A DNA stretch of 64,000 bases, from NCBI GenBank assembly GCA_963815115.1, contig CAWFFN010000005.1:1312001-1376000 (forward strand), in the 5' to 3' direction. Shown piece by piece: positions 19,285-40,778 of the stretch. Numbering within the stretch: position 1 is the first letter of the stretch; each line of letters opens with the position of its first letter. The position numbers were made by a program, and so were the translations under genes. Source of the stretch: an uncultured delta proteobacterium (GTDB taxonomy: Bacteria; Desulfobacterota; Binatia; DP-6). The notes beneath the pieces were generated by a model. The model searched no databases. It was not told the DNA's origin and was given only the letters and a program-made list of their open reading frames with translations.

Positions 19285-19310
19285 CGATGGGCCTCCTCTT
19301 TGCGGGGTCA

Positions 19311-19508
19311 TCAGCCGTAGGTCTCCGATCGGCGGCCCGCTGACGGTACCGCCGTCGCAGGCACCGGCGAGACAGAACGGAGATTGCCGCCTTCGGTCTT
19401 GATCTCGAGCAACGCGCTGCAGGTCGAGTCGCGTACCAGTCCTGCATAGTCGTCGTAGGCATCGCCGAGATCGATCTTGTGGCCGCACGCGAGACAGATG
19501 ATCTGCAT
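19311..19508 (-). CDS. small zinc-ribbon-like protein in the gas vesicle cluster
   Basis: MQIICLACGHKIDL...DSTCSALLEI; GAGGAG RBS; second CxxC is degenerate. Confidence 0.55.
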   Translation of the reverse strand: MQIICLACGHKIDLGDAYDDYAGLVRDSTCSALLEIKTEGGNLRSVSPVPATAVPSAGRRSETYG

Positions 19509-21850: not shown

Positions 21851-23264
21851 TCACGGGTGCGGGCGGATCGCGCCCGCCTGGGGCCAGTGCCCGAGCGCGT
21901 CGTAGGCGGCATATTTGTAGAGCTCGGAGAGGGTCGGATAGTTGAACACCATGCCGATCAAGGTCTCGACGGTGCCCTGGAGCGTCATGACGGCCTGGCC
22001 GATGTGCACGAGCTCCGTCGCGCGCTCGCCGATGCAATGGCAGCCGATGAGCATGCGGCTGGCCGGGTCGAAGACGAGCTTGATCATCCCGTCGCGGTCG
22101 CCCACGATCTGCCCGCGGGCGTTCTGCTGGTAGAAGGCTTTCCCCACCACGGGCACGTAGCCGGCGTCCCGCGCCGCCGATTCGCCGTAGCCGACGCAGG
22201 ACACCTCGGGAATGGTATAGATGCCGTACGGCAGCAGCTCGCCCAGCTGCCGCTTGTAGGGGAAGGCGAAGGCGCGGCAGACGGCGACACGGCCCTGGTC
22301 CATCGAGGTGGAGGCGAGGGCGGGGAAGCCGATGCAGTCTCCCGCGGCGAAGATGTTCGGGACGCTCGTCCGGTAGCTGGCGTCCACTTCCACGTAGTCG
22401 CGCTTGCCGACCTTCACACCGATCGCATCGAGGCCGAGCCCGCGGATGTTGCCGGAACGTCCGGCGGCGAACAGGAGCTGGTCGGACACCACCTCGCCAC
22501 CGCCCTTGAGCGTGGTGACGATGCCGCGACCGGGGACGCGGCGCACCCCCGACCAGGCATCGCCGAGGTGGGCGGTGACGCCGAGCCCGCTCATCGCCTT
22601 GAGGAGTCCCACACCGATGTCGTCGTCGAGGAACGGCAGGATGTGATCGCGCGGCTCGACCAGCTGGACGGGCACGCCGAGGGCCGCGAACATCGTGGCG
22701 TACTCGCAGCCGATGACACCGGCACCGAGGACCGTCAGCGAGCGCGGCATGCGATCGAAGTGCAGCACCGTGTCCGAGTCCTCGATGTCGGGGTCGCTGA
22801 AGTCGATGTCCGCGGGACGGTGGGGCACGGAGCCCGTGGCGATGAGGACCACGTCACCGGTGATGCGCTCCGCGTCCGTCCGGACGGACGACTTCGATCA
22901 CATGGGGATCGAGGAAGCGCGCGCGGCCGGCGACCATGGTGACGCCGTGGCGATCGAGGTTCGCGCGGATGCGCGCCACCTCGGCCCGTCGTACGGCGTC
23001 CTTCCGGCTGAGCAGCCGCGGGGCGGCGAGCTCGGGCGTGATCGCCACGCTGATGCCGTAGAGCTCGCGCTGATGGTAGCCGGAGAGATACACGCTGGTC
23101 TCGCGCAGCGTCTTCGACGGCAGGGTGCCCGTGTGCACCGCTGCGCCTCCGGGCTCGGCCTCGCACTCGACGACGGCCACCTTCTTCCCGAAGTAGGCTG
23201 CCTGCGCGGCGCCCTTCTCGCCGGCGGGGCCGCTGCCGATGACGATCAAGTCGAAGGCGGCGAT
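21851..23264 (-). CDS. sthA: soluble pyridine nucleotide transhydrogenase, frameshifted near 22875
   Basis: FDLIVIGSGPAG, GTLPSKTLRE in one frame; GAGVIGCEYA, GDCIGFPALASTSMDQGR, FNYPTLSE in the next; apparent start is ATC after AGGAGA. Confidence 0.85.
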
Positions 23265-23275
23265 GGTCCCGTCTC

Positions 23276-24199
23276 CTAGAAGGAGTAGCGCAGCGCGACG
23301 ACGACGTGCGCGGCGAGCAGCACGAGCAGGGCCGCCGTGAGCGGAACGTGCAGGAACAGCCAGCCGTGGAGCCAGTGGTGCAGCCGGCGCTGCACGGCGA
23401 GATCGCGGCGCTCGGCCGCGATGTCGGCGAGATCGCGCGCCGCCTCGTGCAGCGATTTGGGAAGCTCGCGGCAGAGCCCTTCGATGGTGCGAGCCGCCAC
23501 CGCGGCGTCCGCGAACGGTCCGCGCCGGCCGTCGCCACGCAGGAACGGGCGCACCATCTCCACGTAGAACCGCCGCAGGGGCTCGGAGCCCTCGGCCGGT
23601 GCGTCGGCGGGTCGGTAGGCCGCGACACGGCGGGCCATCTTGGGATCGGAATGGATGCGCTCGCTCTCCTTCCTCTCCTCTGCCGCCTCGGGAATCGGGC
23701 CGCACACGGCCGCCGCCGTCTCGTAGGCTTCGAGACCGAGCAGGCCGACCACGTGGGGAATCTGCTCGTAGACCGTCTCGCCGGGAGCCCACGCGGACAT
23801 CAAGCGCGGCACGAACTGCTGCAGCGCGAGGCCGTACACGCCCGAGACGATGACGGCGAAGGCGAGGAGGGAGAGGGCGAGGGCGAGCGTGCCCTGGAAG
23901 CGGAAGGCGCTATGGAAGCACACCAGGGGAACGATGAGGAGCCCGAGCCACACGTGTCCCTTGAGCCAGGTCTCGGCGCGCCCGATTCGCCACGTGGGCA
24001 GGCGCTTGCGGACGTTGAGCCCGACCTCGAACAGCATGAGCGTGGCGGCGGCGATGCCGAACCACAGGCCCGGCCCGCGCGACCAGGTCAGCTCGCGTCC
24101 GGCGCCGGGGCGCGAGCGTACGTAGCCGACCGTCGCCGCCGTGCCCAGGACCGCTGCGGCGACGATCCAGCGCCGCTGGCGAGCGTCAATCAGTGCCAT
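23276..24199 (-). CDS. His-rich integral membrane protein, putative heme b subunit
   Basis: About 5-6 hydrophobic segments; His in WLKGHVWLG, CFHS, WLFLHVPL, AHVVV; start overlaps the upstream Fe-S gene stop. Confidence 0.7.
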   Translation of the reverse strand: MALIDARQRRWIVAAAVLGTAATVGYVRSRPGAGRELTWSRGPGLWFGIAAATLMLFEVGLNVRKRLPTWRIGRAETWLKGHVWLGLLIVPLVCFHSAFRFQGTLALALSLLAFAVIVSGVYGLALQQFVPRLMSAWAPGETVYEQIPHVVGLLGLEAYETAAAVCGPIPEAAEERKESERIHSDPKMARRVAAYRPADAPAEGSEPLRRFYVEMVRPFLRGDGRRGPFADAAVAARTIEGLCRELPKSLHEAARDLADIAAERRDLAVQRRLHHWLHGWLFLHVPLTAALLVLLAAHVVVALRYSF

Positions 24200-26445
24200 G
24201 CTTACCTGCGACTCCGATGGTGGTGGCGAAGAACTCGCGAGGGTTCTCCACCCGCACCGCCGCGCCGTGGGGGCATGCCACCACGCAGCTCGGGTCCTGG
24301 TCCGGAGCGAGGTTCTTGCAGAGATCGCAGGCGGTTGCCTTCTTCTCGCGTGCCACGGCCTTGCGAGGTCCCGGGCGCTGGCGATCGTCGCCCTTCACAT
24401 CGAACTCGTGCATGCTGATGTTGCCATACGGGCAGTTGTCCGCGCACACGCCGCAGCCGACGCACCAGTTCTCGATGTATATCTCGAGCGTGTCTCGACG
24501 CCGGATCGATCCCACGGGGCATCCCACCATGCACAGCGGGTCGCGGCACTGTCGGCAGGACGTGGCGACGAGGTAGTTGTCGTAGCGCAGTCCCTCGCGG
24601 ATGAGCCGCGTCACGCCGTCGTGGGCCGTGGCACACGCTTGCACGCAGAGGTCGCAGCGCGTGCAGCGGTCGAGGTCGAGCACGAGGAGGCTCTGGGCCT
24701 CCATGAGCCCTTGCTGGAGAAAATCTTCGAGCTCGACGTTGCTGGTCGTGGCGGCGATCAGGCGGTTCTCCCCGGCGCGCCGCTCGGCCTCGGCGACGAG
24801 CCGGTCCTTCACCGCGGGGAGAGTGCTCGAGCATCGTCCAGAAGTCGTCGGCAGCGATGCGTACGACATCGACATGGTCGACGGCGATGCAGCTCGCGTT
24901 CCGCGGCTTGTCGAGCAGCAGGCCCATCTCCCCGAAGAAACCGCCGCGCCCGTGGTAGGCGCGTACCAGCTCGCCCCCGGGGAGTCCCACGACGACCTTC
25001 ACGAAGCCGAGGCGCACCAGGTAGAAGGCATCGGCCGGGTCGCCCTGCTTGAAGATGGCCTGGCCCGGCTCGAAGCTCTTCAGCGTGACGCGCTTGCCCA
25101 GGTCGTGGATGAAATCGGCGTCGAGGTCCGCCAGGCACCAGACTCCGCGCAGATGCGTCGCGATGGTGCGGTTGCGGTAGCGGGCGTCGACCTGCGCAGC
25201 GAAGGCCTTCGAGCGACGAAGCAGCTGGAGCACGGGACGCAGCATCTCCAGCACGACGGTGTCTTTCGTGGCCGTCACCGTGGCCGAGCGGGGGTAGAAG
25301 TTGAGGCACGTCATCTCTCCGAAGAGCTCACCGGGGGGGAGTCGGGCCACCGGCTCCGCACGCAACAAGTCTACGGGGGCGTCGATCGGAATCGTGGCGC
25401 CTGGGGCCTCGTCGTCATCCTCTCGGCCGAGCATGCTCCTCATCCCGAGCGCGAACCGCCGGAGCATCCCGGGGCCGGTGCGGTTGTGCACGCGGGACTG
25501 GGTCGTGGAGATGCTCACCTCGACCTCGCCCTCGAGGATGAAGAACGCGGTTGAGCCGAAGTCGCCCTCCTTGCAGATGGGCTCGTCGTCCCTGGGGCTC
25601 AGCCGTCGACGGACCACTGCGCCCTCGTTCTTGCCGATGGGACCGAGCGCCTTCTCGAGGAAGCGGGGGGCTATGCCCTCGAATAGCCGGGTGCCGTCGG
25701 GCCAGCGCAGGCCGAGCAGTACCTCCGCGCCGACCGGCTCGCCGGGGATCCTTGCGTCACCGAACCCCTTGTTCGTGAGCGCGCCGGTCGGGCAGGACAC
25801 CATGCACTCCCCGCACGACACGCAGGTCGACTCGCCCATGACCTGGCCCGCGTCGAACGTGATCACGGTGGCGTTGCCCTTGCCGGCGCGTCCGATGACG
25901 TTGTTGTGCGCGACGTCCGTGCACGCGCGCACGCAGCGGTCGCACACGATGCACGCCGCGTGGTCGACGGCGATGTTCGGGTGCGAGTCGTCGTGCGGCG
26001 TCCAGCCTGCGATCGGCGGCCGCTTGGGCGGTCCGGGGCGGTAGCGGTCGGGCAGGGCACCCAGCTCGCGCGCCTTCGCCTCGAGCTCGCAGTCGTTCGT
26101 CTCCCGCTCCCGGGCGCACGGGGAAGGATGATCGGCCATCAGCAGCTCGACGAGCGTGCGCCGGACCCTTTGCACCTCCTCGCTGCCGGTGGAGATCACC
26201 ATACCCGCCGACAGCTCGCGCGCGCAGGCTGCCGCCATGACGTTCTCGCGCGCGAGCTTGCCGTCGCGCGGAACGCGCACCTCGACGCAGCACACCCGGC
26301 AGACGCCGGCCGGCTGCTGCGGTGGCAGGTGGCATACCGTCGGGATCGTGATCCCGAGCGTCTGGGCGGCATCGAAGATCGTCGTGCCGGGGGGGACCTT
26401 CACCACCCGGCCGTCGATCGTCGCCTCGATGGGCTGGTCGCTCAC
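24186..26445 (-). CDS. NuoG/HydA-type N-terminal Fe-S module + 2 cNMP-binding domains + 4x[4Fe-4S] ferredoxin, frameshifted near 24822
   Basis: IPTVCH..GVCRVC..AAC [2Fe-2S]; HPSPC...DCEL; CIVCDRCVRAC, CVSCGECMVSCP; GELFGEM..PRSATV, GGFFGEM..PRNASC; CTRCDLCVQAC, CRQC..PLCMVGCP, CVGCGVCADNCP, CDLC..CVVACP. Confidence 0.85.
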
Positions 26446-28179
26446 GCCGCTCCTCCGGCGGCCGCCAGCGCCGGCCGCATCGGACACGTGCCCGCCGGGC
26501 AGCGGCTTTCCTGGAGGTGGGCGTTCACCTCGTCCTCGAAGTGCTGCATCATGGACGTGACCGGTGCCGGCACCACCTGACCGAGTCCGCAGATCGAGGT
26601 CTGACGGAGCGTCAGGGCGAGGTCGCCGACCACCGCGAGCCCCGCGGCTCCTGCGCGACCCTCGGTCACCGCTTCCAGCAGGTGGACGATCTTCTCCGAG
26701 CCCACGCGGCAGGGCCAGCACTTGCCGCACGACTCGCGCGCGAAGAAGCGCGCGATGTTGAGTGCGAGGTCGACCATGCAGCGGCCCTCCGCCACGGCGA
26801 CGATGGCGCACGATCCCACCATCGAGCCCTGCTTGGCGAGCGCGCCCCACTCCATGGGCGTATCGGCGAGGTGTGCCGGCAAGAAGCCCGACGAGGCCCC
26901 GGACGGCACCACGGCCTTGAGCTTGCGGCCGCCGCGCACCCCGCCGCCCCAGCGCTCGATGATCTCGCGCAGCGTGGTGCCGAAGGGCACCTCGTAGACC
27001 CCGGGCCGCTCGACGTCGCCGCTCAGCCCGACGAACTTGTAGCCTGCGGCGTCCGCCGTGCCGAGGGCGCGATACCAGCTGGCGCCGCGCAGCACGATCG
27101 ACGGCACGTGCGCCAGCGTCTCCACGTTGTTGACGACGGTCGGCATGTCGAAGAGGCCGTGGAAGACCGGGATGGAGGGCTTCAGCCGGGGCTGGCCTCG
27201 CTTCCCCTCGAGCGCCTCGAGCAGCGCCGTCTCCTCGCCGCAGATGTAGCCGCCGGGGCTGACGAAGATCTCGAGATCGAAGGCGAAGTCGGAGCCGAGC
27301 ATCCGCTGGCCGAGCGCACCCTCGGCCTGGGCGAGCTTGATGGCGCGGTGCAGCGCCTCGGCTTCCCGGGCATACTCGTGGCGGATGTAGATGATGCCCT
27401 GGCGCGCGCCGCTCACGACGCCGGCGATGGCCATGCCCTCGATCAGCAGATGCGGCGCCCAGGTGATGATGCCGCGGTCCTTGATGGTGGCGGGCTCGCT
27501 CTCGTCGGCATTGCAGACGATGTATTTCCGCGTCACCTGCTGGTCGCGGACCGTTCGCCACTTCCTCACGGCCAGAAAGCCGGCGCCTCCCATGCCCTTC
27601 AGCTGCGCCGTCTCGAGCTCGGCGAGCACCGCGTCGGCGCCGCTGTCGAGGACGCGGCGCAACGCGGCCCAGCGCTGGTGCTGCCCGTCGGCGTACGGGT
27701 CGGCGTGCTGGATCGCGACTGCGGGCGACGATGCGGCCTCCGGGAGCGCCTCGTTGTCGCGCAGGGCACGGATGAGCACGTCCATCCCACCGGCATCCAG
27801 GCGCCAGTAGGGTGCGTCGTTCACGGTGAGCGCGGGTGCGCCGTCGCACCGTCCGAGACAGGAGACGCGCTCGACGGTCACCTCGCCGGCTGGCCGCGCT
27901 CGCGCCGGCGGCCTCGACGTCGTGGAGGAGCGACTCCGCCCCGCGAAGACGGCACGAGAGATCGGTGCACACCCGGACGTCTCGTGTCGGCGGCGGCGCG
28001 AGGCGGAAGTGCGGGTAGAAGGTCGCGACGCCGTGCAGGCGGTAGATGGGGACGTCCAGCTCCGCGGCCAGGGCACGCAGCGTGGCGGGCGTCAGGTAAT
28101 CGCCGTTCCGGCGTTGCGCCTCCTCGAGCGCCTCCATCAGGTGCGCGTCGGTCAGGCGAGCGTCCGGAGCCTCTACCAT
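26442..28179 (-). CDS. NuoE-NuoF fusion (FMN/NAD(H)-binding diaphorase), frameshifted near 27900
   Basis: VATFYPHF, VCTDLSC, SCLGRCDGAP (NuoE); GMGGAGF, CNADESEP..KDR, YICGEETALL, ESCGKCWPCRVG, SICGLG (NuoF). Confidence 0.88.
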
Positions 28180-28242
28180 CTGATCAGATATCCCTACCCC
28201 GTTTCCTAGAACACCAGCCCGTTCCCTGACAAGTCGATGCTC

Positions 28243-29679
28243 CTAGTTGCCACGAGTGAGTCCCTGGATATCGAAACGTCCATTCATCTCGTCGGGCCCG
28301 ATCGCCGCGTGGTAGGTGTGGCACTCGGAGCAGGCCGTCCCCGCGCTGCCCGGGCGGTGGCATCGTGCGCAGATATCGCGGCCCGGCAGCAGGAGGTCCG
28401 CCGTGTCCCTGCTCTCCTTCGCGTTGGCGTGGCAGGCGAGGCACCCGAGCTGACGATGGACACCATGATCGAAACGGCTCTGGGGGAACCAGCGGATTGG
28501 GACTCGAGTCGGCGCCACGCTCGGGAGGCCCGAGTCGGGGGCGGCGATCATGGTATGGCATTGCTTGCAGTAGCAGGACTCGCTGAAGAGCACGCGCTCG
28601 GCGGTCGCGACTCGCTCGGCGATCCAGGCGTCTCGGTCCGGCGCACTGCGCGCGGTCGCTCCGCCTGGGAACGGCCGCGGCCTGGGCGTGCCGCGAAGTT
28701 CGCCGGGATGTCGGGCGATGTAGTCGGCGTAGAGGCCCTTCAGGAAGGTGTGGACCACGGCAGGCGTATCGTGGGGGACGACGATGCTGGGGGGAAAGCG
28801 ATCGTCGGCGAACGTATTCGGGTGACACGCGGCACAGTGCTGGGCGTAGCGCACGGGCGCCATGTAGGGAGTGGTCTCGGCCGGAGCGAGCTCGGGTTTG
28901 ACCGGCGGTGCCCACCCCGCGGGCAGCTTGCCGAAGAGCGGAGTCGCCATGGACGTCGTCCCCCAGTGGCAGTTTCCGCAAACGAGCTGCACCCGGAAGT
29001 TGTTCTCGGGCCCGACGAAGTTGGCGGTGAGGTGGGTGGCGTGGTTCAGCTTGAGCTGCGCCATGTCGCGGGGCGCTGGCACGTCATCGAGTGCTTCGCG
29101 GTGCGGGTGCTCGGGGTCTCCCGTCCACACGGCGAACTCGGGGTGCAACGCGTTGTCCCGGGTCGCGAAAGCATGGATCTTCTGCGCGTCCCCTCGCAGC
29201 ACGAAGGCCGGCGGGCCCTTGGTGTGCTGCGGCAGGTCGGCGTGGCAATCGGTGCACGCAGCCGTCGAGACGGCGGAGAGGTTCGGGGCGGCGCGATGCT
29301 CGGTGTGGCAGGTCGCACACGGCGGCGTGGAGTCCTGGTTCGGGTGGTGAACCGGCACGTCGTGGCACGTCTGGCACGCCGCGTCGGTGGCACGCCGGAA
29401 ATGCGGCGGCTCGGCGTCGGTGGCGGTCCCGTGTGCGAGGTCGCGAGCCGCGATGTGGCACGCGGCGCAGTCCTCCTCGTACATCGCGTGCGCTCTCGCG
29501 AGACGGCCCGGAGACGCAGGGTGGGCACGTCCGCCGAGCATCGGTGCGATCCAGAGCGCGGCGGCGGCGAGTGCAGCGAGCGTCAGCCACACCCGCAGGC
29601 TGCGAAACCAGTGCCGGCGCAGGTAGTAGTCTCGCTCGATGCGCTGGGCGCGAAGCTTCGCTTTGCGCTGGCGGGCCAT
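28243..29679 (-). CDS. membrane-anchored decaheme c-type cytochrome
   Basis: Ten CxxCH (CAACH, CQTCH, CATCH, CTDCH, CGNCH, CAACH, CKQCH, CLACH, CARCH, CSECH); N-terminal TM; F/LxHxxH distal-His motifs. Confidence 0.9.
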   Translation of the reverse strand: MARQRKAKLRAQRIERDYYLRRHWFRSLRVWLTLAALAAAALWIAPMLGGRAHPASPGRLARAHAMYEEDCAACHIAARDLAHGTATDAEPPHFRRATDAACQTCHDVPVHHPNQDSTPPCATCHTEHRAAPNLSAVSTAACTDCHADLPQHTKGPPAFVLRGDAQKIHAFATRDNALHPEFAVWTGDPEHPHREALDDVPAPRDMAQLKLNHATHLTANFVGPENNFRVQLVCGNCHWGTTSMATPLFGKLPAGWAPPVKPELAPAETTPYMAPVRYAQHCAACHPNTFADDRFPPSIVVPHDTPAVVHTFLKGLYADYIARHPGELRGTPRPRPFPGGATARSAPDRDAWIAERVATAERVLFSESCYCKQCHTMIAAPDSGLPSVAPTRVPIRWFPQSRFDHGVHRQLGCLACHANAKESRDTADLLLPGRDICARCHRPGSAGTACSECHTYHAAIGPDEMNGRFDIQGLTRGN

Positions 29680-29688
29680 GCCGGCTTC

Positions 29689-31442
29689 TCAGCGGGTCGT
29701 CGGGCGGCGGGGAAACTTGACGAAGGGAAGGCGCACGTTCCGGACCTTCACGCGATCGGAGCGCATGTCCGCGGGCGGCCGGAATCCGCGGCCGGCGGCG
29801 AAGGAGATGATGTCGTCCTGATCGACGCCGTCGCCGCTCACCCCGGCACCCCCGATGAGCCTCCGACCTCGGTAGAGGGGTACGCTGCCGGGGAAGATCT
29901 GGATGCCATTGCCGATGCCGGGGATGGTGCTGCACGGCGATACGATCAGTCCCACCGTCAGGAGCATGACAAGGGCGCCCGAACACGAGGTCGATCTGCA
30001 GCCCGTCATTGAAAATGCTGAAGTCGCCGATGGGCACCGAGAAGGGACCGTGGAAGGTCCCGTCGATTCCGTCCGGGAAGAACGGACGGCTGAGGAATCC
30101 GCCTGCCCGGTCGCTGAAGGCGACGCTGCCGTCGAGGTCGATGCCCTCGCGACGCGCCGCTTCAACGAATTGGTCGAGATTGATTGAGGAGTCGGACGCT
30201 GCTGCGCAGTCGAGCACCCGCCTGCGAGCTGCTGAAGAACGCCGCCGTACGGCCCTTCTGCGCTGAGACGTCGAACCCGAACGTCGGGGCGTCCTGCGTG
30301 CGGAAGATGCCGAGTATGTTTCCGGCTCGGTCGACGATCGTGATGTTGACGCGCGCCCGGTCGCCCAGGGGCCGGCGGATGCCGGCTCGCGTGCGGTTCG
30401 CCTGGTGGGCGCCTTGCTTCAGCAAGCGCTGCACCTGCGCGGCCGTGAGCCCCGGCCCGGGCGGCGGATCGATGCTGTCGCGGGGTGGGTAGTAGCGCGG
30501 GTCGACGGTCCCCTTCACGCCACCCAGGGTAGCCGGAACGAATCGGCTTGGCGGCGTATCGATCGGAGCGACGTCCCCCGGACCGAAGGTGACCGTGGCC
30601 GCGGGAACGATCGGTGTCTCATCGAGATTCGAGAACGGGAAGCGGAGGCCGTTCACCAGGATCTGGTCGCCGCGGATGAAGGCCGGTGCCTCGTACCCGC
30701 GCGTCGCCGCCACCGCGATGCGTTCCTCGTCGGTCACCTCGAGATCGGTCGGGTTGCGATCCACCGTGTAGCGCCCGTTCCCCTCCACCCCGACACCACC
30801 GGCGGCTCGCCCATTCTTGTACAGCGGGAGGCCGCCCGGGTCGGCCGAGAGGCCGAGCGGCAGCGTTCCAGCCGGCAGTGGCAGCAGCGGCGGAGGTAGC
30901 GTGACCCCGGGCCGCGGGATGACATCGCCGCACGGCAGCTGGGAGAACTGCACGCCGAAGAGCGGGCCGCTCGACGTGTTCCGGATCAGGGGCGGAAAAT
31001 GTTGCTGGATGATGAAGCCGGCCGTCCGAGTCGTGAACGCGTTGCCCTGGGTGCTGAAGAAAGCTGCCGTGCCCCCCTTCGAGAGCGCCGCCAGCATGGC
31101 GAAGTTGACCTGGCACACCGGTGGCCCGGGCGGCGGTATGTCCGGAAAGCATGGGGGTTGAGGGGGCAGGGTCGTTCCGTCGAGCCCCTGTGGGTTCTTG
31201 GCGCCACCGTCGATCCTGATGGACTGATCCGCCCCGTCCATCACGTGCGTCCCCAGCACGTTCCCCTCGCGGTCGAGCACCGCGATGTTGACGGGTAGTC
31301 CGACGCGCTGCGCCTCGCTCACCGCCTGGCCGATGACGCGCGTGACGTCCGCGGCCGTCAGCGTCTGAGACGCCGCGGGCGCGGTCAGCGCCACGGCACC
31401 GGCCAAGCACGCGCCGGTCAGCGTCGGCAGCCGAGCCCGCAC
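29689..31442 (-). CDS. secreted tandem GlcG/HbpS-like heme-binding protein, frameshifted near 30215 and 29980
   Basis: Signal peptide; IAVLDREGNVLG, GGLPLYKNG..AGGVGV, ITIVDRAGNILG, PGSVPLYRG..IGGAGVSGDGVDQDD; spread across three frames. Confidence 0.8.
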
Positions 31443-31448
31443 GCGGGC

Positions 31449-33332
31449 TTGCTTAGCGAATGTGGACCGAACACGCAAGATTTGGTATGCGCGCCCGACA
31501 TTCACGACGAATCTGGAGACCCAGGTACGAAGCTCGTCCACGCACTGGCGCTGGCCTTCGTCGCACTCGCGCTCGCCGCTCCGGTGTGGGCGGAGCCGCA
31601 GGACGCAGGCAATGCCACGCCGCGGCGCCGCCCCCTGCCTTCGCCGCCCGAGCCTCCCCCCGCCGTCGAGCCGGGGCCGCCCGTGGAGAACACCGAGGAG
31701 CCGACCGGCTACACCGGTCCGCCGGCGCCGCCGGAGACGTTCCCGGCGGAGGAAGAGGTGGACTCCCGGAACCGCTGGCGCGTGGGCTTGCCCTTCTACA
31801 ATCGCCAGCCCGACAACATCCACGAGGCGCCGCTGGTCCGCGGGCAGTGGTGGGATCCGTACGACCAGAACGTGCTGAAGGGCGACTACCCGGTCTTCGG
31901 CACCCAGAACACCTTCTTCGCCTTCACCCTGCGCAGCGACACGCTGCTCGAAGGCCGGCGCCTGCCGACGCCGAGCGACGTCAGCTCGGCCCGGCCCGGG
32001 AGCTACCAGTTCTTCGGCAACGGCTCGTCGCTGCTCTTCAACCAGAACTTTCCGCTCACCGTCGAGCTGTTCGAGGGCAACGCGGGATTCCGCCCCCGCC
32101 AGTGGGAGCTGCGCGCCACGCCGGTCTTCAACGTCAACTACCTCTCCGCGCGCGAGCAGGGTGTCGTCAACATCAATCCGGCGCACGGCACCACGCGGCT
32201 CGACGGCCACGTGGCGATGCAGGAGCTCTTCGGTGACTACGAGCTGGCGACGGTCGGGCCCTACTTCGACACCATCAACGTGCGGGGCGGCATCCAGGGG
32301 TTCAGCAGCGACTTTCGCGGCTTCCTGTTCGTCGACCACCCGGCGGGCCTGAAGCTCTCGGGGACGTACGGCGCGAATCGCACGCAGTGGAACGTCGCCT
32401 ACTTCCGGCCGCTCGACAAGGACACCAACACGGGCCTGAACTCGTTCCACGATCGGGATCAGAACGTCGCGATCGGGACCCTGACGCGCCAGGACTTCCT
32501 CTTTCCGGGCTACTTCGCCGAGCTGATCGGGGCGTTCGACCGCGACAATGCGAGCAAGCGCTTCGACTCGAATGGCTTCCTGGTGCGCCCCGCGGCGATC
32601 GGCGACGCCGCCCCGCACCAGATCACGGTGGGCTATCTCGGCTGGACCGGTGACGGCCACATCGACCGCATCGGCGTCAGCCATGCCTTCTTCCAGGCGA
32701 TCGGACGCGACGACCGCAACCCGATCGCCGGCCGCGCCACCGATGTGAACGCGCAGATGGCCGCGCTCGAGGTGTCGTACGACCGCGACTGGCTGCGTCC
32801 GAAGGCGTCGTTCTTCTGGTCGTCGGGTGACGGCAAGCCGACCGACGGCACGGCGCGGGGCTTCGATTCGATCCTCGACGATCCGCTCTTCGTGGGCGGC
32901 CCGACGAGCTTCTGGGATCGCCAGGGGATCAAGCTCACCGGCACGAACGTCAACCTCACGAACCGCTTCAGCCTCCTGCCGAACCTCCGACCGAGCAACA
33001 TCCAGGGCCAGCAGAACTTCGTGAACCCGGGCATCTTCATCTTCAACGTCGGCCTGTTCGGCCGCCTGACGCCGAAGCTCGCCTTCGAGGCCAACGTCAA
33101 CTACCTGCGCTTCCAGGAGCCGGCGCCGCTCAAGCTGGTGCTGCTCCAGCACCAGATCGGGCACTCCGTCGGGATCGACTACAGCATCGCGTTCACCTAC
33201 CGGCCGCTGCTGATCGACAACATCATCCTGGTCGCTGGCCTCGCGGGGCTGACGCCGCTCGACGGCTTCCGCGACATCTACACCGCCCAGACGCTGTTCC
33301 AGGGATTCCTGAACGTGATCCTGACCTACTGA
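31449..33332 (+). CDS. putative outer-membrane beta-barrel protein (start uncertain)
   Basis: Signal-like [16 protein letters not shown], Pro-rich linker, aromatic amphipathic strands, C-terminal ..LNVILTY beta-signal; TGATG overlap with the next gene. Confidence 0.7.
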
Positions 33333-36300
33333 TGCGCGTGTCCGGACGTCTTCTGATCCTCGCGGTGCTGGGGGCGAGCGTCGCCCGCGCGGCGCCGCCG
33401 CCGCCCGGCCTGTTCGAGAACCAGCCGGCGGCGAGCGTGCCGGCGGGCAGCGAGGGATGCATCACGTGCCACACCGTCTACGATGACAGGGTGCAGCGGA
33501 CGGCGGTCCTCGAGGACTCCGCAACCATGCACCCGAGCGGGACGGTGAACCTCGGTTGCGCGGACTGCCACGGTGGCCACCCCGAGGTCTTCCGGCCGCC
33601 AGGGGCAGAGCCCGAGACGCCGGCATACGAGGACGCGCTACGGCGCGCTCACGTGCTGCCCGCGCATCCGGACGTCTGGAAGACCTCGGCGAACCCCGTG
33701 CGTTCGTACACGGCGCTCAACCGCGAGAGCGCCGACTTCGTGCGCTTCATCAACCCCGGCGACCTTCGCGCCGCCAAGAAGAGCTGCGGCCGCGCGGGCT
33801 GTCATCCTTCCGAGGTGGCCCGGGTGCGCACCAGCATGATGACCCACGGCGCCATGCTGTGGGAGGCGGCGCTCTACAACAACGGGGCGTTTCCGCTGAA
33901 GAACGCCCGTTTCGGCGAGAGCTACGGCCTCGACGGCACGCCCCAGCGCCTGCAGACGATTCCGCAGCCCGCTCCCGACGACACCACGCTCCACGGCATC
34001 CTGCCGTTCCTCGATCCGCTGCCGCGCTTCGAGGTGACGCAGCCGAGCAACATCCTGCGCGTCTTCGAGCGCGGCGACAATCGGCTGAGCATTCGCGGAC
34101 TCGGCACCCTCAACCGCACCGACCCCGTCTTTCAGGGTCTCCAGCGCACGCGGCTTCTCGACCCGATCCTCTCGTTGCTCGGCACCAACGACCATCCCGG
34201 GGACTACCGCTCCAGCGGCTGCACCGCCTGCCATGTCGTCTACGCCAACGACCGCGATCGCTTCCACTCCGGGCCGTACGCCGAGTACGGCAACCTCGGC
34301 ACGGCGGCGACCGCCGATCCCACCATCCCGCACGACGAGCGCGGCCACCCCATCCACCACGTCTTCACCCGCGGCGTCCCGTCGAGCCAGTGCGTCGTGT
34401 GCCACGTGCACCCCGGAACGTCCTTCGCCAATGCCTATCTCGGCTTCACGTGGTGGGACAACGAGACCCACGGCGAGTTCATGTATCCGCGCCGCGAGCA
34501 GCATCCGACACAGGAGCAGGAGTACGAGAGCTACACCGCCAACCCCGAGGGTTCGGCGCTCCGCGGTCTGTGGTCGGACCTCTATCCCGACCAGGCGAAC
34601 CACCTCGGCGAGGTCGGGGGACCGGACTTCCTCGAGCGCACCTGGGAGCTGAACCCCCAGCTTCACCTGACGAAGTTCGCCGACTTCCACGGCCACGGCT
34701 GGATGTTCCGGGCGATCTTCAAGCACGACCGCAAGGGCGATCTGCTCGACGCGCAGGGTGACGTGGTCGATCCGGTCACGCCGGAGAACACCCAGGTCGC
34801 GCTCGAGACTGCGGTGGAGGGCCGGCCGCACGGCGGGGCGGGCATCCCCGTGCACCTGAAGGACATCCACCTCGAGAAGGGCATGCACTGCAGTGACTGC
34901 CACTTCGAGCAGGACGTGCACGGCAACGGAAAGCTGTACGGCGAGACCCGCAACGCGATCGAGGTCGAATGCGTCGACTGCCACGGGACGGTTCGCGGGC
35001 GCGCGACGCTGCACACGTCGGGGCCCGCCGCCCCGCCCGGCGGCACCGACCTCTCGACCAAGGTGACGCCCTTCGGCACGCCGCTCTTCGAACGCCGGGG
35101 AGATCGACTGGTGCAGCACTCCATGGTCGAGCGCGATCGGTCCTGGGAGGTCGTGCAGGTCCTCGACAGCATCACGCCGGGCAATCCGCACTACAGCGAG
35201 CTGTCGCGCCTGGCGAAGACGCTCCGCCGCGACGGCAGGACGTGGGGCGACGTGCCGCCCGACGCGGCCGACGTCCGCGCGGGCGGCGATCCGCCCGCGT
35301 GGGGCACACCGGCTCCCCGCCCGGCGGGCGACCCGGCCAGCACCCTGGCGCACCGGGACGACGACCTCGCCTGCTACACCTGTCACACGTCGTGGATGAC
35401 GAGCTGCTTCGGCTGCCACCTGCCGATGCGGGCCAACTGGAAGCGGCCGCTGCTGCACTACGAGGGCGACGAGGAGCGCAACTGGACGAGCTACAACTAC
35501 CAGGTCCTGCGCGACGACGTCTTCATGCTCGGCCGCGACGGTACGGTGAAGCGGAACCGCATCGCGCCGGTCCGGTCGTCCAGCGCGGTCCTCGTCGGCT
35601 CCCAGAACCTGAACCGCGAGTGGCTCTACTCGCAGCAGCAGACCGTCTCGAGCGAGGGCTACGCCGGGCAGGCGTTCAATCCGCACTTCCCGCACGCGGT
35701 GCGTGGCGGCAACGAGACCAAGCAGTGCGTCGACTGCCACGTGTCCAAGGAGGACGACAACAACGCCTGGATGGCCCAGGTGCTCCTCCAGGGCACCAAC
35801 TTCGTCAACTTCCTCGGGCGCTACGTCTGGGTGGCGGAGGAGGACGAAGGGCTGGAGGCCGTGGTCGTCACCGAGCAGGACGAGCCCCAGGCCGTCATCG
35901 GGAGCCGGCTGCATTCGCTGGCCTATCCCCAGCGCTACCAGGCGCACGTCGCGCGCGGCCGGCTGCTGCCGGGCTCGCGCATGTTCGAGCACCCGGGACA
36001 CGACGTCCTCTCGCTGCCCTGGACGCGGGAGAAGGTGCAGTTCCTGCAGCTCCGTGGCGAATACCTCTACAGCGCCAACGGCCCGGGCGGCGCACGCATC
36101 TTCGACGTCGCCGACATCGACAACAAGAAGAACCCCGAGCGCATCACGACGTCGGTCATCTCGCCGCTCGGCCAGCGCCTCTACGTGCGCACGCGCGACG
36201 CCGCGGCGGTCCTGTCACCGTCGACGCTGGCGGTCGACCCCACGCGACCCCACCTACCGGAGAACGAGGAACGGAAGCCGATCCACACGCTGTACGGGTA

Positions 36301-37219
36301 CCTCTACATCCTCGATCGCGAGGAGGGCCTCGTGGTCACGCCCGCCAAGACGTTGCTCAACGGCGACCCGAACGACAACTTCCTCGAGCGAGCCCGGTTC
36401 CGCGACGGCACGACCGCTTTCAACCCCGGCGGCGTGCTGACGGGTGCAGTGAACGGTCAGGTCGCCGGACGCTACCTGTACGTGTGCGCCCGCGCCGGTC
36501 TCCTGGTCGTCGATATCGACGATCCCCTCGCCCCGCGGGTCGTCGCGACCCTCGCGTCGCCCGCCGTGGACGACCCGCGCGCGGTGGTGATCCAGTTCCG
36601 CTACGCCTTCGTGGCCGATGCGCGCGGCCTCGAGGTGATCGACGTGACCGACCCGACGCGACCCGTGCCCCGCGCCTCCGTCCCGATCGCGGACGCGCGC
36701 GACGTCTACGTTGCCCGGACGTACGCCTACGTGGCGGGCGGCGCGCAGGGTCTGGTGATCGTCGACGTCGAGCAGCCCGAGCATCCTTCCATCGATCAGG
36801 TGTACGATGCGGACAGGCAGATCGACGACACCCGGTCGGTGAAGGTCGGCATGACGAACGCCAGCCTGTTCGCCTACCTCGCGGACGGCAAGAACGGGCT
36901 TCGCGTCGTGCAGCTGATGTCGCCCGACACGCCCGGGTACACCGGTTTCAGCCCGCGGCCACGTCCCGATCTGCCGGGGCTGGGGCTCATCGCCACCTAC
37001 CGCACGCACGGTCCAGCGGTGGCGCTGTCGAAGGGGCTCGACCGCGACCGCGCGGTCGACGAGAGCGGCAACCAGGTGGCGGTCTTCGGGCGGCGTGGGG
37101 CCGGTCCGCTCACCCTCGAGGATCAGCACCGCCTCTACCTCCGGGACGGCGGGGTGTACGCGGTGCCGGTGCTGCGCGACGCGGCCGCGGTGCGGCGGGA
37201 GTTCGGCGCGCCGCGCTAG
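33332..37219 (+). CDS. secreted multiheme cytochrome c with C-terminal LVIVD-repeat beta-propeller
   Basis: Signal peptide; nine CxxCH plus one CX4CH (CGRAGCH); repeats [37 protein letters not shown]. Confidence 0.9.
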
Positions 37220-37710
37220 AGGCGGTGCAGGTTCTTGTCGCGCTCGATCGACAGCTCGGCGGTGGTGCGGCGCAGCCGTTCGACGAGGAACGCGGCGGCG
37301 TTGCGGTAGAGGAGGGCGGCCGCCTGCGGCCGCTTGCGGAGCTCCTCGCGCAGGCTCGCGTACGGCACCCGGATCAGAGAGCAATGGGCGCCGGCGACGG
37401 CCGTGGCCGAGCGCGGCCCGTGGTGCACGTCGAGGAAGGCCATCTCACCGAACTCGTCGCCGACGCCGAGGGTGGTGATGAGCGTCTCGCCGTCGGTCGC
37501 GTCGGAGTCGGCGGCGAGGATGTCCACGGATCCGGCCTCGACGAGGTAGAGCGCATCGGCGATGTCGCCCTGCCGGAAGATGACCTCGCCGGGCGCGTAC
37601 GTCCGCTTCTCGGCGATCGCCTCCATGACCGTCCTGAGCAGGGTCGGCGCGGAGACGTCGTCGCCCATGTGGCTGCGCAGCAGGTAGAAATCCTTCAGCA
37701 GCTCCGCCAT
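37216..37710 (-). CDS. stand-alone cyclic nucleotide-binding protein
   Basis: [29 protein letters not shown]...PRSATA; no HTH. Confidence 0.88.
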
Positions 37711-37756
37711 CCGCGGGCGTCGACGTATCACGATGGCCCGGGCAACTCCAGACGGC

Positions 37757-39973
37757 TCACTTCTCCTTCGGCCGGTAGACGCCGTCCCAACCCTCGTCGG
37801 GCGGTGCCGCGCGCAGCTCTCGGATGCGGCGGGCAAGCTCGGCGGCCGGTCCGTCGCAGCCCCACTCCGCCGTGAAACGCGCGACCCGCGCTTCCGCGCC
37901 CTCCCAGTCGCGTGCCCGATAGGCAGCGAGAACCTCGGCGAAGCCGGCGGCGAGTCGCCGCCGGCTGCCATCGGTATCGGCGGCGATCGGGCCGAGCAAC
38001 TCGTAGATGGTCACGGACCGGTGCTTGCCCTTCACCTCGACACGATCGACCTCGCGGCAGACGAAGTCGTCGGCCACCTCGCGCTGCGTCGTCTCCGACA
38101 GCAGGATGCGGGTGCGGTAGGTCTTGTTCAGGCCTTCGAGGCGCGATGCCAGGTTCACGTGGTCACCCATGGCGGTGTAATTGAAGCGCGTCGCCGAGCC
38201 GAAGTTCCCGACCACGACCTCGCCGGTGTCGATGCCGATGCCGATGGCCACGTGGGGCCACCCGAGGGTGCGCCAGCGCTGGTTGAGCGGGGCGAGCGCG
38301 TCCAGCATGTGCAGTGCAGTCTGGCAGGCGCGCTTCGCGTGATCGGGAACCGCGACCGGGGCGCCCCAGAGCGCCATCACCGCGTCACCGATGTACTTGT
38401 CGAGTAGCCCCCGATGCTCGAAGAGGATGTTCGTCATCGCGGTGAGATACTCGTTCATCAGCTTGGCGACCTCCTCGGGCCCTGAGCGCTCCTGGAGTGC
38501 CTCGACGTTCGTCGTGAAGCCGCGGATGTCCGAGAAGAAGACCGTGACCGTGCACCGATCACCACCGAGACGAACGCGCTCGGGCTCGCGCGCGAGCTGC
38601 TCGGTCACCTCGGGGTCGAGGTAGAGCCGGAACGTATCGCGTATCCGTCGCTTCTCGCGCTCCTCGCCGAGGTAGCGCACGATCCCGCCCCCGAGCACCG
38701 CGAACCCGATCGCGCCGACGGGATACAGGGCGCTGAGCACGAGCCCGCGCCTCTCGAAGAGCTGCTGCGTGCCCCATGCGTATGCGATCAGCAGTCCGGC
38801 GCTCGCGCAGAAGCCCCACGCGCCAGGGATGCGCAGGAACGATCCGACGAGCGCCCCGAGGAGGAGCACCACGCCTGCCTCGAGCGGGATGATCCAGCTG
38901 GGCCGGTGCAGGCTCTGGCGCTGCAGGATGTTGTCGATGACGGTCGCGTGAATCTCGACGGCCGGCATCTCGGCGGAGAAGGGAGAGGCTCGCCTGTCGG
39001 AGCCGACGGCGGTGAGCGCGACGAGCACGATCTTCCCGTCCACGGCGCCTTCCGGGAGGCGACCGGCGATCACGTCGGACGCGCGGATGTACCGGAAGGT
39101 CCTCTCCTTGGGGCCGAGGTAGTTGATCCAGAGCTCGCCCGCCTCGTCCACGGGGATCTCGGTGGCGCCGACCCGCAGCGCTGCGACGCCGTAGCCCTCG
39201 ACGGTCATGCTCGCGGCGGCCACTCCCGCGAAGCGGCGGAACGTCTCCAGGCTGAGCGCCCCGGTGTATCGCTTGTCCAGGCGTACCACCATCGGGACGC
39301 GGCGGAAGGCTCCGTCACCATCCGGGAGGAAGTTGTAGTGTCCGGTACCTGCCGCGGCGTTGGCGAGGATGGCGATGTTGCCGTGAAAGGCGGTCGCGGC
39401 GGGGATGATGCCGACGTTCGCACCGGCCGCGACCTGCGCCGCGATCTCCGGGATCGTGGCCGCATCGCCCGTGGTCGGCGTGTCGGGCGCGGTGGGCCCG
39501 AGGTCGAAGAAGTGCGCGAGGACGACGCGCCCGGAAGCGCGCAGCGCGGCGGCCATGCGCGCGTCATTGTACGCGAGGAGCGCCGCCTCGAGCTCGCCGG
39601 CCGACTGCGGCTCGGTCTCGAGCACGTGGTGAAGGGTCTCGTGGTCGACGCTCGGGTCTGGCTGGTCGAACAGGACGTCGAACCCGATCGCTCGGGCGCC
39701 CCCCTCGGTGAGACGGTCTACCAGCGTGGCGAGCCGTGCCCGGGGCCACGGCCAGCGTCCCAGCTCCGCGAGGCTCGCCTCGTCAACGGCGACGATCACG
39801 ACCTCGCCGCTGGCCGGGACCGGTCCCCGGAGTCGGTGGCGCAAGTCGAGTGCCTTCATGTCGTACAGCTCGAGCAGCGGCAGGCCAGCGAGCCGGAGAC
39901 CTGCGAACAGGCAGGCGATGCACAGCACCACTCGCCAGACGGTGAGGCGGGGCAGCCGCCATGTCCGTTTCAC
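37757..39973 (-). CDS. CHASE2-domain class III adenylate cyclase
   Basis: GRWPWPR, IGFDVLF (CHASE2); three TM; FSDIRGFT, DKYIGDAVMA, YTAMGDHVNLASRLEG; Lys/Thr specificity pair points to ATP. Confidence 0.93.
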   Translation of the reverse strand: MKRTWRLPRLTVWRVVLCIACLFAGLRLAGLPLLELYDMKALDLRHRLRGPVPASGEVVIVAVDEASLAELGRWPWPRARLATLVDRLTEGGARAIGFDVLFDQPDPSVDHETLHHVLETEPQSAGELEAALLAYNDARMAAALRASGRVVLAHFFDLGPTAPDTPTTGDAATIPEIAAQVAAGANVGIIPAATAFHGNIAILANAAAGTGHYNFLPDGDGAFRRVPMVVRLDKRYTGALSLETFRRFAGVAAASMTVEGYGVAALRVGATEIPVDEAGELWINYLGPKERTFRYIRASDVIAGRLPEGAVDGKIVLVALTAVGSDRRASPFSAEMPAVEIHATVIDNILQRQSLHRPSWIIPLEAGVVLLLGALVGSFLRIPGAWGFCASAGLLIAYAWGTQQLFERRGLVLSALYPVGAIGFAVLGGGIVRYLGEEREKRRIRDTFRLYLDPEVTEQLAREPERVRLGGDRCTVTVFFSDIRGFTTNVEALQERSGPEEVAKLMNEYLTAMTNILFEHRGLLDKYIGDAVMALWGAPVAVPDHAKRACQTALHMLDALAPLNQRWRTLGWPHVAIGIGIDTGEVVVGNFGSATRFNYTAMGDHVNLASRLEGLNKTYRTRILLSETTQREVADDFVCREVDRVEVKGKHRSVTIYELLGPIAADTDGSRRRLAAGFAEVLAAYRARDWEGAEARVARFTAEWGCDGPAAELARRIRELRAAPPDEGWDGVYRPKEK

Positions 39974-40777: not shown

Positions 40778-40778
40778 G

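Follow-up and report, generated by a model that had tools for sequence, protein, structure and literature searches.

By what route could electrons leave the cytoplasm through a tightly packed set of redox genes in an uncultured member of the Binatia, and would that route start at NADH or at quinol? How electrons get out of the cytoplasmic membrane is, of all the steps in extracellular electron transfer (EET), the one least understood outside Shewanella and Geobacter, and to our knowledge every characterized EET entry point takes electrons from quinol. The locus analyzed here occupies 21851..37219 of a 64,000-nt stretch of contig CAWFFN010000005.1 (the window, in whose positions coordinates are given unless a contig or another locus is named), from a source genome (G000) of 12 contigs (C1-C12), the longest being 1.9 Mb. 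It was found to carry a conserved four-gene core with an optional periphery, the core consisting of a NuoE-NuoF fusion (NuoEF), an Fe-S protein with domains that bind cyclic nucleoside monophosphates (cNMP), a membrane protein with five transmembrane (TM) helices (the TM protein) and a decaheme cytochrome c. We put at about even the chance that the locus is a cluster of the type described as PCC4 or ptd with a different input module, that it passes electrons from NADH to periplasmic and outer cytochromes under cNMP modulation, and that the interruptions in four of its reading frames are likely assembly errors.

Gene content of the cluster

Genes were placed by the phase of third-position GC content (GC3) and by family searches (Pfam/NCBIfam), in a window with a G+C content of 70% and many long spurious open reading frames (ORFs). 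The cluster comprises:

21851..~23270, minus strand: SthA-type soluble pyridine nucleotide transhydrogenase, in two frames (Pfam, tblastn)
23276..24199, minus strand: five-TM membrane protein of 307 aa, His-rich, of the PtdF or PCC4 inner-membrane protein type, intact
24186..26445, minus strand: Fe-S/cNMP/ferredoxin protein, of the PtdE type with an added N-terminal module, frame broken (Pfam, NCBIfam)
26442..28179, minus strand: NuoE-NuoF fusion (2Fe-2S, flavin mononucleotide (FMN)/NADH site, 4Fe-4S), frame broken in the E-F linker
28243..29679, minus strand: decaheme cytochrome c of the PtdG type with 10 CxxCH motifs, intact
29689..~31442, minus strand: exported HbpS-like (GlcG/DUF336) repeat protein, in three frames (Pfam PF03928)
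31449..33332, plus strand: outer-membrane beta-barrel candidate, intact (structure model)
33332..37219, plus strand: multiheme LVIVD protein of 1295 aa with 9 CxxCH and 1 Cx4CH, intact

GC3 phase, family searches and motif counts bore out the gene positions, domains and heme counts given by an earlier reading made from the letters of the window (the sequence-only reading), and the tight packing that it reported was confirmed by three start/stop overlaps, between NuoEF and Fe-S genes (GTGA), Fe-S and TM genes (14 nt) and barrel and LVIVD genes (TGATG). Its statement that hydrogenase, molybdopterin and complex I membrane subunits are missing from the locus was upheld across 18.5-51.7 kb, where family searches detected none of these. 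The leftward and rightward genes that it listed are all present; the NuoEF, Fe-S/cNMP/ferredoxin, SthA and HbpS-like genes, read there as whole, are not single open frames, and the breaks had gone unnoticed.

Conservation of the core across genomes

Related loci were collected by a scan of species-representative genomes that yielded at least 576 confirmed stretches, the best 80 of which were kept with 10-kb flanks. The kept loci came from Acidobacteriota, Rokubacteria, Binatia, Planctomycetota, Verrucomicrobiia and others, soil and peat Acidobacteriota making up the majority. Homologs of each part were counted by tblastn, and the counts are floors, some loci stopping at contig edges:

Fe-S/cNMP protein: 77 of 80 loci
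Decaheme: 76 of 80 loci, directly downstream of the TM gene
NuoEF: 66 of 80 loci
c554-like 5-heme protein: 57 of 80 loci, divergent from NuoEF
LVIVD cytochrome: 32 of 80 loci
Barrel: 24 of 80 loci
HbpS-like protein: 17 of 80 loci
Full-length CHASE2-cyclase: 11 of 80 loci, ~2 kb after the decaheme gene, at 35-36% identity
SthA: 10 of 80 loci

These loci almost always have the NuoEF, Fe-S, TM and decaheme genes in that order on a single strand; the window differs in having its decaheme gene upstream of NuoEF and not after the TM gene. The co-occurrence expected by the sequence-only reading was accordingly seen for the four core genes, which keep their order in most loci and in several phyla, and its unit of eight parts gave way to a core with accessories (SthA, HbpS-like, barrel and LVIVD). 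In several phyla, loci that have the barrel and LVIVD genes carry them no more than 10 kb from the core. The cluster itself extends past 37219 and includes:

37216..37971, minus strand: small single-domain cNMP-binding protein (Pfam cNMP_binding, E 9.8e-20)
37757..39973, minus strand: fusion of a CHASE2 sensor and an adenylate/guanylate cyclase (Pfam CHASE2 1.7e-60, Guanylate_cyc 1.3e-25)
45311..~46560, minus strand: c554-like cytochrome with 4 CxxCH, 1 Cx4CH and a signal peptide (Pfam Cytochrome_C554, tblastn)
46777..48237, minus strand: MscS-type channel with a C-terminal cNMP-binding domain (Pfam)

Membrane protein

In 20 sequences of the TM protein (41-66% identity), W78, H82 and H96 on TM3, S119, G120 and G123 on TM4, and H274, H278, W280, H284 and H298 on the last TM helix were invariant, as were the motifs that these residues compose, W-x3-H-x13-H on TM3 and TM5 and SGxxG on TM4. 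The His pairs H82/H96 and H284/H298 are each 14 residues apart, a spacing that, judged from the alignment, is the one expected of a pair of hemes stacked through the membrane; the membrane heme named in the sequence-only reading is matched by this invariant di-heme pattern. The structure model (mean predicted local distance difference test score, pLDDT, 83.7) has five long helices (6-29, 43-64, 75-97, 104-137 and 248-306) and a helical cytoplasmic insert of ~140 residues before the last TM helix. Hydrophobic stretches can also be seen in the sequence itself.

At least 265 relatives were retrieved, none carrying a functional name, from Binatia, Vicinamibacterales, Methylomirabilota and Acidoferrum metagenome-assembled genomes. 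An Atlas search returned only unnamed clusters or ones named "putative ferric reductase like", and NCBIfam gave no match. The cluster type is very common, with the confirmed loci counted above and, by exhaustive profile search, membrane-protein relatives in 4121 representative clusters at E ≤ 0.001, of which 2133 reach E ≤ 1e-10 and 735 reach E ≤ 1e-30, in phyla that dominate soils and peat. Many members of the family (P0132-P0262) are 450-880 aa long with the profile matched in two stretches, and therefore have large cytoplasmic inserts between TM4 and the last TM helix.

Proposed NADH input module and Fe-S protein

Two genomes of the same family and other genera (G023 and G020; ortholog loci L013 and L014) served as reference. 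The L014 NuoEF protein contains the Pfam domains Complex1_51K, NADH_4Fe-4S, 2Fe-2S_thioredx and SLBB, and scored 442 against nuoF_fam (cut-off 558.65). The N-terminus of the Fe-S protein resembles those of HoxU, NuoG and [FeFe]-hydrogenase in NCBIfam (HoxU 156.9 vs a cut-off of 333), and Pfam assigned cNMP_binding (1.7e-35) and Fer4 families to the protein (Fer4_11, PF13247, 23.9 vs 26.2). In 41 sequences the N-terminal block conserves ligands for one 2Fe-2S cluster and a pair of 4Fe-4S clusters, and the C-terminal block holds four 4-Cys motifs, as in a four-cluster ferredoxin.

The Pfam domains of NuoEF and of the NuoG-like N-terminus are shared with the complex I N-module and HoxEFU; the Q-module, the membrane arm and subunits of hydrogenase or formate dehydrogenase are absent near the cluster, and the NuoEF and NuoG-like part appears to be a paralogous NADH module and not complex I. 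A second NuoF is encoded elsewhere in the genome, at C7:201970. The L013 ortholog of SthA scored 539.8 against NF003585 (cut-off 465), and the window copy is 72% identical to it, in two frames; SthA is of a different flavoprotein family from PtdC and is accessory to the core.

Predicted coupling of the Fe-S protein, membrane protein and decaheme

Complex prediction combined the ferredoxin domain (A3) with the TM protein (alignment A1) and two hemes, in three runs and with three controls. The ipSAE values were 0.65, 0.65 and 0.67, with 0.00 for the best control; 116 of 157 solved complexes and 2 of 215 mismatched pairs attained that mark, in a calibration that our own alignments and the riding hemes fall outside. 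Runs shared at least 70% of contacts, with a partner pLDDT of at least 66. The interface comprised the cytoplasmic loop 61-79, 127-145 and 270-278 on the TM side, including the invariant R64, W78, P131, H274 and H278, and the first and last Cys motifs on the ferredoxin side. The contact between Fe-S and membrane proteins suggested by the sequence-only reading was thereby recovered, with the ferredoxin clusters on the conserved cytoplasmic face. The predicted docking fits a step in which the last cluster hands electrons to the inner heme, and supports rather than demonstrates binding.

At the decaheme N-terminus, 21 of 23 orthologs examined carry a basic peptide of the type TKKLAQRIDLNYFKR followed by a hydrophobic helix. 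Conservation of the basic N-terminal peptide and of one TM helix makes it likely that the decaheme is fixed in the inner membrane next to the TM protein instead of moving freely through the periplasm. It gave no NCBIfam match at E ≤ 0.001, the DmsE/MtrA model included, and in Pfam only generic c7/c3 and paired-CXXCH matches.

These results bear on a quinone-coupled arrangement, in which the five-TM di-heme protein would pass electrons to or from the quinone pool, either with NuoEF and the Fe-S protein as a non-pumping NADH:quinone reductase or as the point at which quinol feeds the decaheme; either form would draw on quinol, as Mtr and Pcc do, and the contrast with those systems made in the sequence-only reading would then not hold. 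A flavoprotein with an Fe-S part and a five-TM di-heme anchor is reminiscent of di-heme SQR/QFR, and the five-TM di-heme anchors of type B succinate:quinone oxidoreductases do work with the quinone pool in this way. The 14 of 80 loci without NuoEF need an electron source, which quinol would serve. The five-TM architecture with two HX13H motifs is, moreover, common to cytochrome b-type quinone-reactive subunits according to the accessible text of PMC5566968, in which a quinone-reactive role is proposed for the membrane proteins of PCC3 and PCC4. Against this stands a complete path free of quinone, made up of the predicted docking of the ferredoxin domain on the TM protein and the anchored decaheme next to it in 76 of 80 loci, and no quinone-site motif is known. 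We consider quinone coupling unlikely, and retain the reading in which NADH feeds the cytochromes through the Fe-S protein and the TM protein.

Cytochromes and outer-membrane candidates

The LVIVD protein has a Sec signal peptide and a C-terminal LVIVD beta-propeller and is 75% identical to its L014 ortholog; a lipobox is absent from it. The barrel protein gave no Pfam or NCBIfam match, and its model is all-beta with ~21 strands (pLDDT 68.1; predicted template modeling score, pTM, 0.67). In Foldseek its best match was AlgE (E 4.6e-11, TMq 0.45), followed by OprD/Occ porins. The barrel gene lacks an ordinary start codon right before its signal-peptide-like stretch, the sole in-frame TTG lying 27 codons upstream, and nearly zero intergenic DNA separates the divergent HbpS-like and barrel starts (31442-31536). 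The HbpS-like ortholog in L014 is 604 aa long, with three stretches of PF03928 and a signal peptide. The c554-like protein, 46.7% identical to the L014 protein by tblastn, is encoded ~8 kb from the core here and divergently from NuoEF in relatives; Pfam and NCBIfam searches placed no NrfA, HAO or other catalytic-site family above cut-off.

If the barrel and the LVIVD protein were unrelated neighbors, the decaheme and the c554/NrfA-like pentaheme might reduce a soluble periplasmic substrate in a redox or nitrogen-oxide function. The 5-heme protein does match Cytochrome_C554, the barrel and LVIVD protein occur in only 24 and 32 of the 80 loci, and, in the accessible text of the ptd preprint (10.1101/2023.11.21.568154), PtdA is placed in the NrfA COG and ptd genes are found in nitrite oxidizers. 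Yet the barrel and LVIVD genes, where present, stay at most 10 kb from the core across several phyla, and NrfA, HAO and like catalytic families remained below cut-off, so that a purely periplasmic function appears quite improbable.

Cyclic nucleotide context

Both cNMP domains of the Fe-S protein carry FGE..R[SN]A motifs at 95% conservation or more, which we take to be the phosphate-binding cassette of cNMP domains. A homolog of the small cNMP protein lies between the LVIVD gene and NuoEF in L014, and a 50% identical copy of the MscS-cNMP channel lies beside SthA in L013 (G023), at 5303-6505. The two cNMP domains in the Fe-S protein, together with the cyclases and cNMP proteins nearby, suggest that cyclic nucleotide may gate electron flow. 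Directly after the decaheme gene of L013 (14416-18504, minus strand) lies a gene for a 1362-aa protein combining an adenylate/guanylate cyclase with AAA_16, with a partial match to a TOMM kinase/cyclase model; this is a second cyclase type beside the same core.

Proposed electron path

In the path that we propose, NuoEF (FMN, 2Fe-2S, 4Fe-4S) would oxidize cytoplasmic NADH and pass electrons through the NuoG-like clusters to the ferredoxin domain, with its four clusters, in the cNMP-binding Fe-S protein. Docked on the cytoplasmic face of the five-TM protein, this domain would deliver them to two bis-His b hemes stacked across the membrane, from which they would move to the membrane-anchored periplasmic decaheme and on to further multiheme proteins; where present, the outer-membrane barrel and the 10-heme LVIVD propeller protein would receive them. 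Cyclic nucleotide would gate the flow via the two cNMP domains and the nearby cyclases and cNMP proteins. The parts of this path that we infer are that the TM protein binds heme b, that electrons run outward from NADH and past quinone, that the conduit reaches the outer membrane and that cNMP controls it.

NADH has a potential of about -320 mV, below that of typical multiheme cytochromes, and outward electron movement follows the membrane potential. An outward direction is proposed because NADH is of low potential and electrons would move outward along the membrane potential, on general thermodynamic grounds. Such a path would dissipate and not build proton-motive force, and its regulation would therefore be sensible.

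Inward flow, from extracellular or periplasmic donors such as Fe(II) or reduced humics to NAD+, would let lithotrophs make NADH directly. In Hox hydrogenases and formate dehydrogenases, modules of the NuoEF type work in both directions, but electron transfer from Fe(II) to NAD+ is strongly uphill and would carry electrons inward against the membrane potential. A coupling device (a pump, a bifurcating partner or extra HydB-type clusters) is not encoded in the cluster, and most of the 80 loci come from soil and peat Acidobacteriota. In the accessible text of PMC5566968, PCC4 clusters are framed as candidates for Fe(II) oxidation, with Zetaproteobacteria and Hyphomicrobium from Fe(II)- or pyrite-oxidizing settings among their hosts. 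On this evidence the inward direction has, in our estimate, a very slim chance.

A more far-reaching form of the outward path is a quinone-independent, cNMP-gated respiratory shortcut in dominant phyla of soil and peat (Acidobacteriota, Rokubacteria, Binatia and others), running from NADH through NuoEF, a sensor-bearing Fe-S wire, a new class of di-heme membrane protein and an anchored decaheme to extracellular acceptors. We put it forward tentatively, as somewhat doubtful in its entirety. If it holds, the cluster would serve bacteria as an "NADH oxidase for minerals and humics", a valve under regulation that lets electrons skip complex I and the quinone pool. Should NuoEF feed the conduit, cells could unload NADH onto Fe(III), humics or electrodes with no part played by the quinone pool; models of redox balance, fermentation yields and methane suppression in anoxic soils would change, a compact NADH-to-electrode module would become available for engineering, and the built-in cNMP sensors would be the first second-messenger control inside an electron wire.

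Several observations weigh against the path, in whole or in part. The membrane protein scored 16.5 bits against Pfam Ferric_reduct (PF01794; cut-off 28). Foldseek searches of its model against the PDB gave nothing at E ≤ 0.001, a wide VIA-align search gave generic helical hairpins only (Z ≤ 9.7) and PDB sequences searched by profile yielded no match better than E 2.6; its heme b binding is predicted from motifs alone. In the Fe-S protein the His-ligated NuoG-type cluster motif is incomplete, with only H96, C100 and C109 conserved, and the two Fe-S blocks are ~330 residues apart, with the cNMP domains between them; an unbroken electron wire is therefore an assumption. No NuoEF was detected by tblastn in 14 of the 80 loci, and in eight of these (L017, L018, L022, L027, L056, L071, L072 and L079) the Fe-S protein is reduced to its cNMP-ferredoxin part. 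Among hand-picked neighboring ORFs in seven of these eight loci, which encode an amidase, an M50 peptidase, a CarboxypepD_reg protein, SDR, GST and PLD proteins, none was an NAD(P)H flavoprotein that could be a PtdC-like donor. As NuoEF is missing from some loci and the tested neighbors include no NAD(P)H enzyme, NADH is not the universal donor. At the outer membrane, the surface position of the LVIVD protein is putative, and the nearest folds of the barrel are of the 18-strand AlgE/OprD types, MtrB being absent among the matches listed.

Frame breaks in the window copy

Five frame breaks were located in the four interrupted genes, all of the +1 type (one extra base), and the Pfam domains of NuoE, the Fe-S protein, SthA and HbpS are each divided between ORFs in different frames. 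Each ortholog in G023/G020 is one uninterrupted frame, of 578 codons for NuoEF, 713 for the Fe-S protein, 466 for SthA and 604 for HbpS. By ortholog alignment the NuoEF break falls near 27906-27912, in the E-F linker. That of the Fe-S protein falls at a CCCC run (24816-24819) where orthologs need CCC, with the tblastn frame change at 24817/24818. The SthA break lies near 22874-22889, residues 1-127 of the L013 ortholog aligning in frame -3 and 133-462 in frame -1 (tblastn), and the HbpS-like breaks lie at 30182-30206 and 29935-29983, the L014 ortholog aligning in frames -3, -1 and -2. The reading frames of the decaheme, TM, barrel and LVIVD genes are intact.

The breaks are, with good probability, assembly errors, as judged from the sequence record: coding signal is kept, breaks are limited to long-read-style loci and similar breaks occur in unrelated genes. 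GC3 stands at the coding level on both sides of every break, and the fragments around the breaks are 64-72% identical to orthologs, without stops or deletions. In the 27 of 80 loci classed as long-read-style, a class inferred from record titles, 17 frame-change junctions were found in 208,065 aligned nt, compared with 0 in 328,866 nt of the other 53 loci. A genome-wide hidden Markov model (HMM) of frame phase, a rough heuristic in which a clear candidate was a same-strand frame switch with the upstream frame running more than 100 nt beyond the switch, returned 273 clear candidate breaks, 201 of them of the +1 type, while two-thirds of ordinary gene boundaries in G000 are of the other (non +1) type. 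The genome-wide +1 excess suggests systematic insertion-type consensus error or an unusual frameshift load. Fourteen candidates were sampled, and of the six that were stop-free on both sides and were tested, two interrupt a Pfam domain, three lack a usable match and one proved false, being a pair of tandem CoA-transferase genes; the two that split a domain were in a Proton_antipo_M gene (NuoL/M/N or Mrp type) and an AcrB-family gene, at C5:833034-834444 and C9:642977-644220 (L096-L099).

The contrary explanation, that the breaks are real and that NuoEF, the Fe-S protein, SthA and HbpS are pseudogenes in a cluster decaying in G000, is independent of the quinone, inward-flow and periplasmic alternatives. 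Several features count toward it and against artefact. All five breaks are confined to four genes (~7.1 kb), the other four (~8.2 kb) being spared; the cluster has ~8 times the mean density of clear candidates in the genome (3 in 9.5 kb vs 0.4 per 10 kb); rpoB and rpoC are intact; and at four of the five sites there is no homopolymer of four or more. It is opposed by the coding-level GC3 that flanks every break, by the identity of the fragments to orthologs, by the confinement of like breaks in homologous loci to long-read-style names (17 vs 0) and by like breaks in unrelated genes of G000 (the AcrB-type pump and the Proton_antipo_M subunit). Decay is in our view improbable, and assembly error is kept as the explanation. 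Programmed frameshifting was rejected, as the five sites lie in four unrelated genes, share no slippery motif and have orthologs in frame.

Four soil-metagenome runs gave patchy contigs only, and among the pieces listed none demonstrably bridges a frame break; the nearest, X2 record 16 (27919-28254), stops just before the NuoEF break. The sole indel reported in them is a missing letter in an X2 contig (depth 2 of 14.8) at 24784, 32 nt from the break at 24816-24819. The deletion probably represents a related strain, and it does not explain the break, because it is outside the stretch where the ortholog alignment changes frame.

Neighboring genes

Between the cyclase and the 5-heme cytochrome lie genes for an NHL/YncE-type beta-propeller protein of 986 aa without heme motifs (42337-45297, plus strand), a TPR protein (40779-42188, minus strand) and an exported 264-aa protein (39983-40777, minus strand). 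These three (39983-45297) were rejected as members of the system, homologs being found in 0 of the 80 loci. To the left of the cluster's neighbors, 18496-19488 (minus strand) encodes a GvpL/GvpF gas-vesicle family protein (Pfam E 2.6e-55).

Comparison with known systems

With MtrCAB and the Geobacter Pcc systems the cluster has a common logic, in which a periplasmic multiheme cytochrome is combined with an outer-membrane barrel and a further multiheme protein. It differs in that the decaheme matched no MtrA/DmsE model in NCBIfam, in the best folds of the barrel (AlgE and OprD, with MtrB absent among the matches listed) and in its input, an NADH flavoprotein with an Fe-S chain as opposed to CymA, ImcH or CbcL. 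MtrB has 26 strands, and the barrel model here, of pLDDT 68, about 21.

The closest mechanistic analogue is the NOX/FRE/MsrQ group, which has two bis-His b hemes on TM3 and TM5 that move electrons through the membrane from a cytoplasmic nicotinamide-linked flavin. Those proteins have six TM helices, compared with five here, where ~140 cytoplasmic residues are inserted before the last helix; here, too, the flavin/NADH site would reside on the separate NuoEF and Fe-S subunits, and the acceptor would be cytochrome c and not O2, Fe(III) or MsrP. NOX or MsrQ did not appear among the matches listed in the fold searches with the TM protein (Foldseek, VIA-align), and the proteins may nonetheless be akin. 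Hmc and Tmc of sulfate reducers and type B SQR likewise combine a cytoplasmic Fe-S subunit with a heme b membrane subunit, Hmc and Tmc adding a periplasmic multiheme cytochrome. The HdrD/CCG-type and NarI-/NrfD-type subunits of these enzymes are absent here, and NuoEF and cNMP domains are present. The syntenic porin, scaffold and multiheme cytochrome genes described as EET1-EET4 in peat Acidobacteriota and Verrucomicrobiota (10.64898/2026.05.27.727921) may overlap with the barrel and LVIVD part of the cluster; NADH, Nuo, cyclic nucleotide and the inner membrane go unmentioned in the accessible main text of that preprint.

The sequence-only reading knew of no characterized system of this make-up; the core, however, had already been described, as PCC4 (He, Barco, Emerson and Roden 2017, Front Microbiol, PMC5566968) and as ptdABCDEFG (bioRxiv 10.1101/2023.11.21.568154, 2024), in both cases from sequence and with function not tested, as far as the accessible texts go. 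Our assignment to PCC4/ptd was made by motifs and gene content, set against the published descriptions and not against sequences. According to the accessible text on PCC4, the cluster encodes 4-, 5- and 10-heme cytochromes, a porin and an inner-membrane protein ~300 residues long that has five TM helices, the fourth bearing SGXXG and the third and fifth each bearing WX3HX13H; an Fe-S gene lies directly upstream of the membrane-protein gene and more redox genes lie beside the tetraheme gene. Its hosts are Proteobacteria and Planctomycetes, including the Zetaproteobacteria and Hyphomicrobium mentioned above, and the proposal made for it is a quinone-reactive membrane protein in an Fe(II)-oxidation conduit without an extracellular cytochrome (PMC5566968). 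The TM protein here (307 aa, five helices) carries all three published motifs, and the Fe-S gene is again directly upstream of the TM gene, with the 14-nt overlap. The hosts here are mainly Acidobacteriota, Rokubacteria and Binatia, and a 10-heme LVIVD protein accompanies the barrel. The redox genes here are NuoEF and the NuoG-like extension; the domains of the PCC4 redox genes appear in a supplementary figure, outside the comparison.

In the accessible text of the ptd preprint (10.1101/2023.11.21.568154), ptdA encodes a pentaheme, ptdB a porin, ptdC an FAD/NAD(P)-oxidoreductase, ptdD a tetraheme, ptdE a cNMP-binding protein with 4Fe-4S, ptdF a ferric-reductase-like membrane protein and ptdG a decaheme; function is called completely unknown, the hosts are marine and saline, and PtdG is given as periplasmic. 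Among the literature searched, the ptd names are used in that preprint only. PtdE, PtdF and PtdG match the three central genes here, PtdA and PtdD may, by description, correspond to the c554-like protein, and PtdB, a porin, to the barrel. Here, by contrast, the decaheme is predicted to have a conserved cytoplasmic peptide and a TM anchor, the loci are from soil and peat, and a PtdC-type gene is absent from the cluster, NuoEF and the N-terminal NuoG/HoxU-like module standing in its stead. Literature searches, with the supplements of He et al. 2017 and of the preprints outside their reach, found no description of this NuoEF-fed form, and the NuoEF and NuoG-like input module in place of PtdC is the element that looks new. 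The variant gives ptd/PCC4 clusters a concrete, testable donor candidate.

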